Shown: positions 4,690-29,899 of the stretch, piece by piece
Layout of the letters: every line of letters begins with the position of its first letter
Numbering within the stretch: position 1 is the first letter of the stretch
NCBI GenBank assembly: GCA_013265495.1
Contig: MU057584.1
Location: 185,782-224,788 of the forward strand
Direction of reading: 5' to 3'
DNA length: 39,007 nt
Origin: Vicugna vicugna
Taxonomy: Eukaryota
Program-made: the position numbers and the translations under genes
The notes under the pieces: model-generated
Seen by the model: the letters and a program-made list of their open reading frames with translations, nothing else
The model's database searches: none
What the model was told of the DNA's origin: nothing

Positions 4690-5140
4690 CAAAAAGGGGT
4701 TGTAGTATAATCATTGTTTTACAAATTCCTGGTTCACTGGTTTGTGAGCAACCGTCAATGTCATTACAGGTATACCTAAATATTTTTAGTGATTTCTCCT
4801 TGTTTACATGTGCTTTAACTGATTAAAACTGGAGCATTAAGATTTGTGGGTTTTTGCTGGACTAAGAAGATGCTATTAAACCTGGCCATCTACATACATC
4901 TTTTCCCACATGTACAACTATCTCCCAAGTATAAATTACTACACACTTACTGCTACTTCGAAGTAGAGGTTATATAAATTGAACTTGACACACTGACAAA
5001 TTTTCAAAAAAGACGACCTATTTTCACTCCTACCAATAAGTGCATAAGAGTTCATGTTTCCACAGATCCCCACTGATGTGGCTTTGGTGAATCTGTTTAC
5101 CACTGCTATTCTGATGAGTTAGAAATGGTATTTCTGATTT
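4690..5140 (-). mobile_element. Old L1 (L1ME-like) fragment
   Basis: cactcctaccaataagtgcataagagttcatgtttccac...ctattctgatgagttagaaatggtatttc. Confidence 0.55.
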
Positions 5141-5224
5141 TTAAAAATGTTATAATATTTGTCTTATAGATAAAAAAACCAAAACAATCCAGTATGAAAT
5201 GAAATGGCAAAAATACTGTATTCA

Positions 5225-5480: not shown

Positions 5481-6101
5481 AACCTCTCTCTGACAGCAGT
5501 TTCTCTCTAGGAGATAAAATACAATCACAGAAACATGACAATAGTGTGTTGGAGACACATTACCCAGACCTGCCAAGAGAGCATCTTTCCCTGAAACCAT
5601 CCATGGCCTAAAAGTGACTTGCCTCAGTGAATGTTAGTATAATCTTTTAATTTTTATAAAAATGCTTTTTAAAAGGTATGTACAATATTGCTTTGAGTAA
5701 GGGGACAGTTTTTTCCTACACTTATCCCGTTCATAGGTATTTTTCCCAACACGGAATCTGTGTCCATAATCTGCCCCTTTGATATATTCTTACTAGTTCT
5801 AGCATTTGTAAAAACTCCCTCCTGGGCCACCTGTGATGAACATGATGTTTCTTTTTTTCCCTGAAACCACTGCCACATCATTTCCTTAGGGACTATTCCA
5901 CTGTGCAAGAGACTCTGGAAGACTGGAATTTGTGAAGTTTGTGACTGAGCGCTTTCCCTGTTTACCAAACTTCCAGATCTCCCTTCCCGTGCGGACCAGC
6001 CTCTACTGCAGCCCTTCCGACACATCACGTCTGTATCGATTTTCTCCTGTGTTGGCTCTGAGATGAACAGAAAGTTCTGAGTTCTACCCGGAGATCTCCA
6101 C

Positions 6102-8671
<2,570 letters not shown>

Positions 8672-22000: not shown

Positions 22001-22535
22001 CATTAGCGATTTCTGTGGAAGGTAGCCTAACAAAAGACCACCAACTTAGTGGCTTAAAACAACTACTTCTTTATGCTCAGGGGTTCTCTGGGTCAGGAAT
22101 TTAGAAAGGACACAACAGGGATGGCTTTTCTCTGTTCTGTGATGTCCGGAGCCTCAGCTGGGAAGACCCACAGGCTGGTGGCAACTTGACAGCTGGGGAG
22201 TGGAATCACAAGACTGGAAGTTGATGGCAATGGTCGGCTGGGACCTCAGCTGGGGCTGTCAACTCCAATACCTACACACGGCCTTTCCATGTGGTTTCCT
22301 GGGCTGCTTCACAGCAGCGTAGCTGTGCTCCAAGTGTGAGCACCGCAGGAGAACAAGGGAAAGCTGCATCACTTTCTATGACTTAGCATCAAAAGTCACA
22401 TATAGTGTCGCTGTCATCGTCACAAGCCTGCTCATGCTCAAGGACAAAGAAGATCAATCCCCTTCCCCCAACCTCTCAATGGAAGGAAAGTTAAAGTCAC
22501 ATTTTAAGAAAAGCATGTAATTTGAGAGGTGCTAT
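22001..22535 (-). mobile_element. MaLR LTR (MLT1-type, probably MLT1F-like)
   Basis: acttagtggcttaaaacaac...tgggtcaggaattt...gcctcagctgggaagac...ggctgggacctcagctggggctgtc...aagtcaca. Confidence 0.75.
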
Positions 22536-22619
22536 GTTAGTTCCTGGGGCACAGGGACCTGGTCTGGTATTGCCATCTAAGACCTGACAGGGCACCTGGT
22601 TTGGGCCAGGAGCCACTCT

Positions 22620-22890
22620 GAGAACAGGACAATTTCTTCTACACCATTATCCCATAGGGGACCTAAGTGCAAACAGCCAGTAGTATGGGTTTGACAAAAT
22701 TAAAGAAATCCAACAAAAAATAAATAAAGACCCCTCTGAATTTTTGGAAAGGATTTATCAGGTTTATAGCAGATCCCAAGGTCCCTGAAAATGCTAGAAT
22801 GCTAAATATGAGAAAACTGCAAAAATTAGATGATGTATTTGGAATAAACCCTTCACAATTGGTAGGTGTTGCTTTTAACATAACAGGGAA
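22620..22890 (+). pseudogene. gag: ERV gag capsid remnant
   Basis: KIKEIQQKINKDPSEFLERIYQVY (major-homology-region-like), then ADPKVPENARMLNM/RKLQKLDDVFGINPSQLVGVAF..NRE. Confidence 0.8.
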
Positions 22891-23805
22891 ACACTCATTC
22901 TAGAAACTCATCACTTTACCCAAGATTGTCCTTATATCCATCACCACCTCACTCAGCTCATGTTTTGGCTTCCTTGATCCTACACTGTCCCTCTTTGTTT
23001 TAGAGAAGTTTACCAGCTGGATATGTGGGACTGACTCATGTTTGGCAGTATCCTATGCCAGTTCTTCACCACCACTGGGCCTACTCAGTGGTAAAATGCC
23101 ACATCTCAAGAAATGGTTTCTGAGTTTTGGAAACTCCCTCACATCAGAGTGCTGCATGTTCTTAGAGCCTGTCCCAGTCTTGCACATTAAGAGGTGATGG
23201 CCCTCCAGAAGGTGAGACACCCAGGCGGCTTTCAAGAGAACAGATTTTTGTATTGATATCAGCAGCTTCCATTAAGTTAGGTTCCACGATGTGCTATTCT
23301 AGTCTTGGACCCTTTTTTCCCAAGGAGCCTGAAAAGAAAGGAACCAGCAGTACAGTTATTGGTATGATCGCTGGATGTTGTGCTTTGTCGGACTTGGGGG
23401 CACCTTTGGTTTTTGGAAAAAATCATGTACATATTGGAGCACAATTTGTTCGTAATAAGAAAGTTTGTCTCAGGAGGAATTACAGTTCTCTTTGGTGTAT
23501 GGGAACAAGGCTTAAAAGAACCAGTGTTTATTGCTATGCGTTCTCTAATGAGAATAGCTGGAGCAGTTAAGTTTTGCTGCAGCAATGACTGCATCTTCTA
23601 TCCTTACAAAGACATGTCCAAATGATGTGGCGACAGTATTGGGAAGTCTTGACACTTTTTCTGGACTGGGACTAATGCTAGGGCTTCCTTTTGGTGACTT
23701 CTTGTACCAATCCTTTGCCTATGTAGTGCCTTTTATTTTTCTGGGATACATAGTTCTACCATCAACATGTGCATTTTACATAATTATGAGTCTGATCCAG
23801 GAAAA
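22884..23805 (+). pseudogene. SLC18B1: Intronless, circularly permuted SLC18B1 (MFS transporter) retrocopy; candidate circRNA-derived pseudogene
   Basis: 22884-23193: KHSF*KLITLPK..SLSSCFGFLDPTLSLFVLEKF..GLLSGKMPHLKKWFLSFGN..PVPVLHIK (~aa 224-330); 23194-23805: GDGP..GETPRRLSREQIFVLISAAS..LGPFFPKE..VATVLGSLDTFSGLGL..NYESDPG (~aa 15-225); stops and frameshifts present. Confidence 0.9.
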
Positions 23806-23861
23806 TAATTAAAAAGGTGGGAGCCTCTCATATGGTAAAAAGAGAGGAATACTCTGATAAA

Positions 23862-23954
23862 TGAAGAGGCTCAGGGGCTCCCTTGGACTTGAGGCCCCCA
23901 ATTCCAGTTTCCCCACAGGAGCCCCGGGTAACTTTGACAGTGGGGGGGGGCCAA
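23862..23954 (+). pseudogene. pro: ERV gag stop and protease N-terminus
   Basis: TGA (23862-23864) followed in frame by RGSGAPLDLRPPIPVSPQEPRVTLTVGGGQ; breaks off just before the expected FLVDTGA active site. Confidence 0.8.
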
Positions 23955-25215
23955 TGGTATGAGAATCCAAAAAAGGCTGCCTCTTTGGTATTTCAACTGG
24001 TATTGAGTAGTACTATTAACTCTTTGGGAAAAAATAGCCAAAATAAAGCTTTGTCAAATTTATTAGTACTGTCTCTGGTCCTTGAAACACTTGAATAATT
24101 GTGATGCTATTTAAGGAAAATAAAGTTAAATTTCAGGTCTTGCCATTAAGAACAAAGTAGATAGGAGACTTGGCTTTACCTGGGTGTGTACTTGAATATT
24201 CTGCACCCGAGGCGTCTGACCTCTGTCACTGTGGCAAACTCAGGAGCAGCTGCAGCGAGTGGTTACTCCGCATGCACCGCTTAGTTTAGTTTCATGTTTG
24301 CATATGGATGGTTTTTAAAAGTCCTTTTACATATTTAGTAACTATAATGCGTCACAAGTTAATTTAACTGTAAGTTTAGTTTAAATCAAATATGCAAAGT
24401 TTACTTGAGTTTTGAAAGCAAATTTTGACTGTTTACAGAATTGTTTAAATTACAGTTTCTCAGACACGTGAGCTTTCCTTTTGGGCCTTTTGCAGATGCA
24501 TGTTAAGGGCTTAGCGTTAGGATCTGCATATGTGGGGCACTGAAAAGACAAAGGACTTACAAATAAACTTTCGCTTATATTTTATTCCAAGACTGGCACT
24601 GCTGTCAATGGAAAGTATTTTTAACTAATCTGTTATTGAGAAATTAATCATATTTTTGCATTTCAGCCAAAATAAGGACCATAGCTAATATTCTGTAAGA
24701 TACAGTTAATCCGTAAACCTGAAATTCATGTTCCATATGATCTGAACAGTATTCTCCAACTTAAAATAAAAATGCAGTATTGATTCAGAAAAGTCTGTAT
24801 TTTTCTAACAACTTCACTTTATATTATTTTGTTGGGTTGCATAAAACAGGAATTATATTTGTTTTAAAAGCTTAAGAAAATTATTAGTTGAGTTTATTTT
24901 ATTTGTACATCATTGCACATGAGTCCATGCCACTTTTTTAAAAAGGTGGACACTATTTTAAAGTGATCTTTAATATGTTTTTTATATAAACAAACTTGAA
25001 ATAGTTTACTTGGTGGTCTTTGCTTATCAAGTCCCATAAGTCTTGTATTTGTTTCTCGTAAGTGGAACCCTGGACCATAACTTCATGTTAACTCTTTGCT
25101 TTGTCTTTTGGGTGGCCTAACATACATTAACATGAAGGATGAACATTTTAAAACTTTTTTTCAAGAAATTATAATAATGATTTACTTTATTAATAAAAAA
25201 GGAATCTTTTGTTGT
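23955..25215 (+). other. AT-rich non-viral insert resembling a cellular mRNA 3'UTR
   Basis: No pol-like translation; T/A-rich; AATAAA at 25192-25197 near its right end; replaces the rest of PR, RT and RNaseH. Source not recognised. Confidence 0.5.
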
Positions 25216-25269
25216 GCTTTCATGAGCACTTACACAGGTTACATGTGCTATAGAAACACTGGACACAGT

Positions 25270-26028
25270 CCAAAGTGGTTAAAGCCCTCCTTAATGAAAT
25301 TGTCCCCCGAATTGGACTGCCTAGTACTCTTCAAAGTGATAACAGGCCTGCTTTTGTCTCTAGCATAACCCGACATGTGTCTAAAATATTGCAAATTAAC
25401 TGGAAACGACATTCATCCCAGAGACCACAATCAACAGGAAAAACCAAGAAAATAAATCATACGTTAAAAAAGAGTATTGCTAAAATATGTTGAGACTAAT
25501 TTAACTTGGGATAAAGGCCTTGCCAGTTGCCCTGCTACAGATCAGAGTGGCTCCTAGAAGCAGGCTTAAATTAAGCCCCTTTAAAATATCATATGGTAGG
25601 CCATTTCAGGCGTCCCCCAGGCAGGAGAATCTACAAATGCTCTTAAAGTCCTAGCAATTGCCAATTATGTTAAAACTTTGGGCACTCTACTAACCTCTGT
25701 TCATGAGTTTGCCTCCAACAGGTCTGCTTATCCAACTGAAGTAGCCTTACATCCCTTCCGACTTAGAGACTGAATCTTGTTTAAAATCTGGAGGGAACAA
25801 GGGCCTGAGCTTCAGCTGACTGTAAAGTGGACAGGACCACATGTGGTATTACTTACCTCGCACTCGTCTGTCAAGTTAGCTGGGGTAAAGCCATGGATTA
25901 ATCACATGTAGATTAAAGCAGCACCACCATCATTGGAATCAGAAAACAACCCGACTCCTGAGAGGCCTGGGGAACAGTGGTTTTGTGAACCCTTAGAAGA
26001 CTAAAGGTTATGCTTTAAAAAAAGATAA
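25270..26028 (+). pseudogene. pol: ERV integrase remnant
   Basis: VVKALLNEIVPRIGLPSTLQSDNRPAFVS..WKRHSSQRPQSTGK..NHTLK..LSPF..YGRPF..KWTGPHVVLL..VKPWINH..CEPLED. Confidence 0.9.
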
Positions 26029-26412
26029 CTATTGAGATTATAATTTCACTGTAGCTGAAAAAAGGTCAACCTATTTTGTTTAATCTTGTCTAAATGAATA
26101 GCACAGGAATCTAGTGTAATTATGTACAGTAAGAAAGTTAACATTAAAAGATATGTACTGGAAACTGGAACCAAAACTCCAAGTTCAACAAAGTACTATG
26201 GAGTCTTATTAGGTTGAAGTGGTTGTAAATAAAGAAAAAAAGAGAGAGAATAATACTATCGACTAAAGATTCTAAGAAATGTTCCCTGTACGAGGCTGAT
26301 CAATGCTATTCCATAATCACCCCTTCATTGCCCCTGCTCAGCAGGAAGTAGCCAGAGCGGCCATCACCCCTCTTCCCATAAGACTGTGGAATGGACATTG
26401 ACAGAGGTGAAT

Positions 26413-26902
26413 TGTAATAGGAAAGAGCAAACCTGACTCCATATTAGATCTGCTCTTTTGGCTTTAGCCCTATACCCCGTTTTCTAGACTTAGTCTTGCT
26501 AGCTCTGTACCTTTTGTAAAAGAATGTTGCCTACAGCCTGAAATATACAGGAGAGCCTATTCTCAAGGGGTATTAACACTTACGCATTCATATAAAGATA
26601 ACAAGTGCAGAATAGAAAATAACATTTGTTTTGTTGGAGGCTTATAGGGACCCATGTGGACACCTGCAAGAACAAAGAACTGCACCAAGAAGTTTGCAAA
26701 AACCAACCACACCCTCTCCCACTTTTAGTATAAAAGGAGCCTGAATTCTGACTTGGGGAAGATAGATCTCCAGGAGATGAGTCTGTCATCTCCCCTGTCT
26801 GCCGGCTTTCTGAATAAAGTCACTATTCCTTGTCCCAACACCTCATCTCCCAATTTATTGGCCTGTTGTGCAGCGAGCAGAATGAGTCTGGACTCAGTAA
26901 CA
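26413..26902 (+). mobile_element. ERV1 3' LTR (490 bp)
   Basis: TGTAA...TAACA termini; degenerate polypurine tract acagaggtgaat upstream; TATAAAA 26729-26735; AATAAA 26813-26818; ERV1 pre-LTR motif cagcaggaagtagccagagcgg at ~26339. Confidence 0.85.
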
Positions 26903-28001: not shown

Positions 28002-28105
28002 GGAGGAATGGAAGGAGGGGGAAAGGGTGGAAGTGAAGGAGGGAGGGAAGAAGTGAGGAAGGGAGGGAGGGAGGGAGGGAGGGAAGAAGGAAGGGAGAAA
28101 GGAAG
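28002..28105. repeat. Purine-rich (GGAA/GGGA)n simple repeat in ZNF180 3'UTR
   Basis: ggaaggaggggg...gggagggagggaagaaggaagggagaaaggaag. Confidence 0.9.
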
Positions 28106-28132
28106 ATACATATAACCTAAAAGATTTCCAAA

Positions 28133-29899
<1,767 letters not shown>

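Follow-up and report, generated by a model that had tools for sequence, protein, structure and literature searches.

Host sequences are known to travel inside retroviral and retrovirus-like elements in several ways. The oncogene-transducing (v-onc) retroviruses carry spliced host sequence in place of viral coding sequence, depend on a helper virus, and arise through reverse transcriptase (RT) switching between templates at short homologies. A second group is formed by the non-autonomous long terminal repeat (LTR) elements, e.g. VL30, mouse ETn (mobilised by MusD) and maize Bs1 (which carries pieces of host genes); we know of no back-spliced exon circle in any of them. Circular RNAs (circRNAs) have also left copies in genomes. 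Dong et al. (2016, Cell Res; PMC4897178) described 33 mouse pseudogenes derived from circRFWD2, whose flanks were enriched in LTRs, and regarded the way in which they had arisen as mysterious. A preprint (bioRxiv 10.64898/2026.01.21.700838), in the parts available to us, reports the encapsidation of circRNAs by a retrovirus, HIV-1 in cell culture, such packaging having been unknown before. The subject of the present study is an endogenous retrovirus (ERV) found in a 39,007-nucleotide (nt) stretch of Vicugna vicugna DNA (G000:C452:185782-224788, hereafter the window), which lies within a 2.03-Gb mammalian assembly. The internal region of this provirus contains two non-viral blocks, the first of which consists of exons of the transporter gene SLC18B1 in a back-spliced order.

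Based on our observations, we consider it likely that an ERV founder exchanged the nucleocapsid-coding part of gag for one lap of an SLC18B1 circRNA, that the element then spread by means of a helper, and that a second capture took place later.

The origin of the first block (block 1, 22884-23804, 921 nt) is clear from its exons. A protein search with the 134-amino-acid (aa) frame at 23166-23570 returned 64 hits, every named one being SLC18B1; a protein-cluster search found generic major facilitator superfamily clusters alone. An intact SLC18B1 gene is present in the same assembly (C9280:22861869-22879667), and the matching exons occur in it each once and in order. The eight gene exons, here called A to H in gene order, and their splice sites (gene loci L037, L038 and L039) were aligned to the window with blastn. 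In the cargo the exons are intronless and follow the order F-G-H/A-B-C-D-E-F' (a slash between exons, bases or positions marks a joint), and seven of the seven internal exon-exon joints sit on the AG/GT sites of the gene. Identity between cargo and gene is 75-90%, exon by exon, and 80-90% for exons F, G and H of the first arc.

The joint between the two arcs, at 23193/23194, reads TTAAGAG/GTGATGG. As the gene reads ...TTAAGAG/gtaac at the exon H donor and ...caag/GTGATGG at the exon A acceptor, this is an exact donor-to-acceptor fusion of exon H to exon A. Exon F supplies both ends of the cargo, its 10th base being the first (CAGGGAAAC) and its 16th base the last (..AGTCTGATCCAGGAAA), so that the two ends overlap by about 7 nt. 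The eight exons total 948 nt. Because of the H/A back-splice joint and the overlap of both ends in exon F, block 1 would correspond to a single turn round an eight-exon circle of 948 nt. A tblastn search with pig SLC18B1 (P0010) covered residues 15-329 of 457 and nothing outside them; the cargo lacks the first coding exon as well as the final 128 residues, and passes directly from exon F into viral sequence without a poly(A) tail.

The cargo of the window is permuted and broken by stops and frameshifts. A protein tree was built from the host gene, 22 orthologues and translated cargo rows, in which an X bridges each break, and in this tree the pseudo-protein rows have long end branches, 0.08-0.66. 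The initial annotation of the window had predicted that such copies might be found mis-annotated as SLC18B1-like genes. This expectation gained no support, as none of the 64 database proteins, all of them longer, was non-colinear, and a search among proteins of similar length gave no hit.

What the cargo displaced can be read from relatives that lack it. A search with the gag tail gave distant relatives, two of which, both cargo-less (L040 and L041), were examined. The viral sequence at 23805-23957 aligns to these two and to nine further loci with pro only. Between the points equivalent to 22878 and 23807, L040 and L041 have approximately 175-200 nt, versus 921 nt of cargo in the window, and this stretch encodes a nucleocapsid zinc knuckle, C-x2-C...H/W...C, which in L041 reads ..EQCAYY.EEQLWKNDCP... 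Because the relatives encode the knuckle at the cargo site, we conclude that the cargo replaced the nucleocapsid, and this replacement is found in every copy covering the site.

The viral edges in the relatives read AACAGGGGAC on the left and AACAGGAAGC on the right, and SLC18B1 exon F reads TCCAGGGAAAC, so that a CAGGR microhomology exists at both cargo edges. The left joint, AACAA/CAGGG/AAAC, has the three Gs of the gene in 15 of 19 rows. At the right joint, GATC/CAGGAA/AACAA, 16 of 19 rows have two Gs and thereby match the right-hand site of the virus; a single row has three. The presence of CAGGR at both edges points to two template switches, probably made by reverse transcriptase.

The initial annotation had also anticipated dispersed copies with identical breakpoints; such copies do exist in this genome, and the chimeric junctions are not single-copy. 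A genome search with a 1121-nt query across block 1 gave 41 matches: the window, eight gene exons, nine loci with the pro stub only, and 23 matches in 20 dispersed loci. All 20 loci, which are 73-85% identical to the window, have the cargo embedded in an ERV; they were compared as 10-kb stretches, and the family thus comprises 21 copies including the window. The 5' joint (22883/22884) is kept in 18 of the 20 other copies, L015 being truncated there and L018 showing a local disruption. For the back-splice joint the number is 17 of 20 (L025 is deleted across it; L031 and L032 end before it), and for the 3' joint (23804/23805) it is 17-18 of 20. The 19 cargo rows of the protein tree form one clade (support 100/95). 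A star-like tree, its end branches having a median length of 0.091, was obtained from the DNA of the 1.4 kb that the copies share. A single capture, followed by spread to at least 20 places in the genome, is supported by these data. One of the copies, L032 (G000:C11532), is rearranged, the first ~230 nt of its cargo region lying beside an inverted segment of 5' LTR and leader.

Both LTR ends are present in seven copies, which differ in their flanks; each has its own 4-bp target duplication, perfect in three cases (AGAG, CAAC and GGCC), matching at three of four bases in three and at two of four in one. Two copies, L017 and L019, share a larger deletion and group together (100/100), their target duplications being different (AGAG versus CTAT/CTAA). 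Since this deletion variant is present twice with different duplications, the defective form itself must have moved. Copying of defective forms after the loss is supported as evidence for mobilisation in trans, and the replication-defective, trans-mobilised element proposed at the outset agrees with both the individual target duplications of the cargo copies and the movement of the deletion variant.

The losses in pol are younger than the first capture, because some cargo copies still hold pieces of protease, RT and the integrase zinc finger. Pieces of RVP, RVT_1 and the integrase zinc finger are retained among L027, L028, L030 and L020; the zinc finger occurs in L030, and RT pieces are found also in L028, in L030 and downstream of L020. 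In L027 the matches are RVP (E 5e-6), RVT_1 (E 9e-10) and Integrase_H2C2 (E 5e-7). Copies without the second block run from ..TLTVGG into the protease D-T-G motif. Four copies (L018, L021, L022 and L023) share a pro-to-integrase deletion with its joint at 25269. The comparison of RT sequences also revealed what looks like a much younger ERV family, with several loci of identical score and an uninterrupted 1211-aa frame (e.g. C74:493863, C3569:840545, C5769:246014, C6265:5665338, C8717:1057917 and C12404:4377820), whose RT is 50% identical to that of L027. Other loci have open frames of 1274 and 1884 aa.

The second non-viral block (block 2, ~23958-25203) is present in the window and in L013, L014, L015, L016 and L025, i.e. 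in 6 of 21 copies. These belong to a clade (100/99) that also holds L027, L020 and L031. Two blocks in one provirus are consequently a trait of the window copy and its sublineage and not of the family as a whole, block 2 being a later event of that sublineage. We rejected the derivation of the block-2 copies from the short pro-to-integrase deletion form: viral homology in them restarts at ~25208 and integrase is kept from there, i.e. upstream of the deletion joint, and their grouping with the pol-bearing L027 also opposes it.

Over 23975-25200, block 2 shares 84% identity with L011 (G000:C9623), a unique locus not flanked by ERV sequence, and a second locus, L042 (C3193), matches a part of the block with 79% identity. 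No family was found for the L011 open reading frames (ORFs). As the block-2 tree is an unresolved star, the designation of L011 as the source rests on the boundaries: at either viral joint, its homology ends no more than a few bases away. The block has the viral sense, and L011 shares with it an AATAAA at 25192, six bases before the viral integrase sequence resumes, an arrangement expected of a transcript 3' end. Block 2 may alternatively have arisen without any captured RNA, either through DNA recombination or gene conversion with C9623, or because C9623 is itself a stray ERV fragment. The block contains no introns that could reveal splicing, and the branch of L011 in the star tree is as long as those of the ERV copies. 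We regard this alternative as possible but distinctly the less probable one in view of the boundaries, the lack of ERV flanks in L011 and the position of the shared poly(A) signal.

Four of the six block-2 copies have no 5' LTR and are cut at different points, whereas 13 of the 14 other copies keep it. A 5'-truncating mechanism was considered as the origin of the block-2 copies but set aside: L014 has the last ~65 nt of the 5' LTR and L016 a partial one, and no target duplication flanks the truncated ends. In L014 (G000:C10560), positions 5127-5167 of the locus are a 41-nt inverted duplicate of window 23974-24014, on the opposite strand and with 90% identity.

Taken together, the joints allow the following scenario to be proposed. 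Eight SLC18B1 exons (948 nt, residues ~15-329) would have been back-spliced into a circular RNA, which would have entered virions together with viral RNA. While the minus strand was being made, reverse transcriptase would have quit the viral template at CAGGAA and landed on CAGGGAA of exon F, made one lap and, on reaching the same site again, jumped to a second, upstream viral CAGGG site. In the founder, the one-turn cDNA would have taken the place of ~175-200 nt of the zinc-knuckle part of gag. The cargo has the same sense as the virus, which fits this scenario because copy-choice at the RNA level requires it. The chimeric genome would have retained the LTRs, the primer-binding site and the polypurine tract, and, being devoid of nucleocapsid, would have needed helper proteins for packaging and copying. 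A helper would then have mobilised it at least 20 times as differing pol and env deletions built up. Finally, one sublineage, including the window copy, would have replaced pro, RT and the integrase N-terminus with ~1.25 kb of non-coding host sequence ending at a poly(A) signal.

With rather less assurance than for the exchange itself, we lean towards interpreting the family as a fossil of retroviral circRNA packaging, in which one lap was copied between two microhomology jumps, and as an example of a general route by which circRNAs may enter mammalian germlines and multiply there.

Several points weigh against this scenario. The viral edge sequences on which the microhomology depends were deduced from two cargo-less relatives that are distant (67-80% identical), a thin basis. 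The gag assignment is weak, its entire profile support consisting of two weak Gag_p30 hits, in the gag tail of the window (E 0.043) and in the cargo-less L041 (E 7e-4). When 40 ORF pieces of L017, L019 and L022, taken from their upstream 1.3-1.7 kb, were compared with Pfam, none matched Gag_p30, and sequence searches of the PDB with two upstream pieces of L017 found nothing. No helper was identified, the nearest RT relative being 63% identical. The literature searched by full text, as far as its text was available to us, names neither circSLC18B1 nor any other SLC18B1 circRNA. As regards the second capture, L011 and the copies cannot be distinguished by branch length in the star-like block-2 tree, and the RNA origin of the block is only putative. 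Finally, it is possible that the template was a linear transcript with repeated exons, which would leave identical DNA.

This last point deserves attention, since it constitutes the strongest alternative for block 1. A linear SLC18B1 template with repeated exons could result from exon repetition, trans-splicing or a tandem-duplicated gene. If reverse transcriptase began on such a template within the second copy of exon F and departed from it within the first, the same exon order, the same exact H-to-A joint and the same overlap would be produced, and DNA alone cannot tell the two templates apart. Back-spliced circles are, on the other hand, far commoner than exon-repetition mRNAs. The present SLC18B1 gene has each exon once and in order, and the cargo consists of the circle exons alone, with no exon 1 and none past exon H. 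We therefore consider a linear template improbable, bearing in mind the caution of Dong et al. (PMC4897178) that non-colinear joints can arise otherwise.

Another explanation assumes that a colinear SLC18B1 cDNA was captured first and permuted at the DNA level, by tandem duplication and deletions, before the expansion. With one founder for all copies, such a rearrangement would be common to all of them. Random breaks, however, are not expected to hit two exon edges exactly and the same 7 nt of exon F as well, and no colinear copy exists among the 20 loci, which makes this course of events very improbable. As for segmental duplication of one chimeric locus in place of retrotransposition in trans, two pairs of copies on the same contig (C2710 twice and C6707 twice) and the mutual closeness of L017 and L019 would agree with it, but we dismiss it almost entirely, as all seven two-ended copies have their own flanks and 4-bp duplications (different even in L017 and L019), the copies end exactly at the LTR TG and CA, and their upstream flanks have only common interspersed repeats in common.

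Assuming capture of a circRNA lap, the SLC18B1 copies resemble the mouse circRFWD2 pseudogenes (PMC4897178) in their non-colinear joint at exact splice sites, in the presence of the circle exons alone, and in being multi-copy, LTR-associated and without poly(A) tails. In the mouse set, however, the link to LTRs is a statistic of flank enrichment, whereas the SLC18B1 circle copy lies inside a defined provirus, where it replaces the nucleocapsid. Here, both viral joints and their microhomology were identified, and 21 copies allowed the carrier family to be reconstructed. Further differences concern the host gene, the order to which the host belongs and the age (K2P, Kimura two-parameter distance, 0.16-0.26). 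Encapsidation of circRNAs by HIV-1 (bioRxiv 10.64898/2026.01.21.700838) would equal the first step of the proposed mechanism; in the parts available to us, that preprint says nothing on whether the circRNA is reverse-transcribed or inherited.

Like the v-onc viruses, the family carries intronless host sequence in place of viral coding sequence, is replication-defective and apparently helper-dependent, and has joints suggestive of RT switching at short homologies. It differs from them in that its cargo is a permuted, start-less transporter fragment with no sign of function or selection. An expressed and selected cargo protein, characteristic of v-onc viruses, is thus not what we found, the cargo being incomplete, permuted and broken. 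Moreover, its template was apparently circular, and the element is a fixed part of the germline that multiplied into an ERV family. With ETn, VL30 and Bs1 it shares the retention of LTRs, a putative primer-binding site and a polypurine tract, the loss of coding capacity and, presumably, amplification by a helper; unlike in those elements, one cargo-bearing lineage passed through several deletion forms in succession, all of which moved.

What is new here, compared with known transduction and with circRNA retrocopies, is a single back-spliced lap that replaces the nucleocapsid, with microhomology at both joints. Judged by literature listings, no provirus with back-spliced cargo was found described, and the accessible parts of a survey of ruminant ERVs (PMC11831830) do not mention SLC18. 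A Dfam or Repbase consensus for the family may exist in which the cargo is unrecognised.

If the proposed mechanism is true, it might supply the one that is missing for circRNA-derived pseudogenes, with defective proviruses as an unrecognised route. The carrier, the entry and exit joints, the microhomologies and the displaced viral segment are all legible in DNA and lead to testable predictions. Other genomes, as well as the circRFWD2 copies of the mouse, could likewise be examined by searching ERV internal regions for back-splice joints. The family may also serve as a dated case of an ERV lineage that kept spreading without nucleocapsid, despite further deletions and a second capture, and annotators of cetartiodactyl genomes should bear in mind that a hit resembling SLC18B1 may come from ERV cargo.

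The age of the capture was approached in two ways. In the protein tree the host gene is sister to Vicugna (100/97), inside the camelids (100/99). The cargo clade falls inside the cetartiodactyl clade (99/97), its placement among camelids, pig, hippo, ruminants and whales being unresolved, and a tree in which the cargo was forced together with Vicugna and the host gene was rejected (p-AU 0.0003). Because of this position and the rejected constraint, the capture predates the Camelus-Vicugna split and lies near the base of the cetartiodactyl radiation. LTR-LTR K2P distances in six copies are 0.164, 0.174, 0.203, 0.256, 0.210 and 0.197, the last two from partial LTRs. At an assumed rate of 2.2e-9 substitutions per site per year, they correspond to 37-58 million years, and to older dates at slower rates. 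Of words sampled from the locus, fractions of 0.74-0.83 were present in DNA runs under three organism labels and 0.11-0.15 in RNA runs, the latter allowing no conclusion.

The provirus itself occupies 22532-26902 of the positive strand (Table 1). It is decayed and 5'-truncated, and is a member of an old non-autonomous ERV family of class I (gammaretrovirus-like). The remnants, the two non-viral blocks, the polypurine tract region and the 3' LTR given by the initial annotation were all found, with small corrections only, and each of its four junction ranges holds a true joint (22883/22884, 23193/23194, 23804/23805 and ~23957/23958). Its overall extent stands as well, apart from the start, since ERV homology begins at 22532 and not at 22540.

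Table 1. Features of the ERV in the window (positions within the 39,007-nt stretch)
Feature	Position	Strand	Remarks
Putative gag remnant, C-terminal part of capsid	22532..22883	+	5' break of the truncated copy at 22532
Cargo 1, first arc: SLC18B1 exons F (from its 10th base), G and H, spliced	22884..23193	+	blastn to gene exons
Back-splice junction, exon H (last base) joined to exon A (first base)	23193..23194	+	
Cargo 1, second arc: SLC18B1 exons A-E and first 16 bases of F	23194..23804	+	
End of gag and start of pro, reading ..PQEPRVTLTVGG; viral sequence resumes	23805..23957	+	
Cargo 2, non-coding host block, sense strand	23958..25203	+	ends 6 nt past AATAAA at 25192
Integrase core and C-terminal domain, with stops/frameshifts	25208..25990	+	Pfam rve, MLVIN_C
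Residual 3' internal region, PPT (polypurine tract)-like stretch directly before LTR	25991..26412	+	alignable to other copies
3' LTR, 490 bp, TG...CA	26413..26902	+	TATAAA at 26729, AATAAA at 26813

The assignment to class I agrees with the TG...CA LTRs with promoter and poly(A) signals, the 4-bp target duplications and the gamma-type domains. In the window, rve was detected at 25254-25493 (E 2.6e-4) and MLVIN_C at 25774-25911 (E 4.4e-4), both under the curated cut-off. No env domain was found in the ORFs of the window, and just ~420 nt separate integrase from the LTR. The 3' LTR starts with TGTAAT and ends with GTAACA. When a 626-nt query beginning at 26280 was used, matches ran from base 131-134 to base 623-626; this LTR is very abundant, with 4155 first-look candidates in the genome, 40 of which were scored. 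In several copies a TGG-initiated 18-mer directly follows the 5' LTR and constitutes a candidate primer-binding site. It reads approximately TGGCGAAGCCAGCC.GGA at the 5' LTR ends of L018, L021, L028, L030 and L014, and we take it to resemble the complement of the 3' end of tRNA-Arg.

All 19 other copies that reach the gag tail align from 22532 on; upstream of this position, each has leader-gag sequence, a 5' LTR or both. Because a 5' LTR and ~1.3 kb of leader-gag precede this point in other copies, and the window is devoid of a 5' LTR over its whole length, its copy is 5'-truncated. An old interspersed repeat at ~22025-22440 (135 first-look candidates, 66-77% identity) adjoins the truncated end.

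Two further features were noticed elsewhere in the window. At 28002-29264, a purine-rich GGA/GGGA run (28002-28113) leads to a tandem array with an 84-bp unit, in which at least 12 overlapping 300-nt registers show 63-80% identity. The region 6001-8000 is GC-rich (0.555-0.581 versus 0.29-0.50 elsewhere) and could be a CpG island or an exon region.

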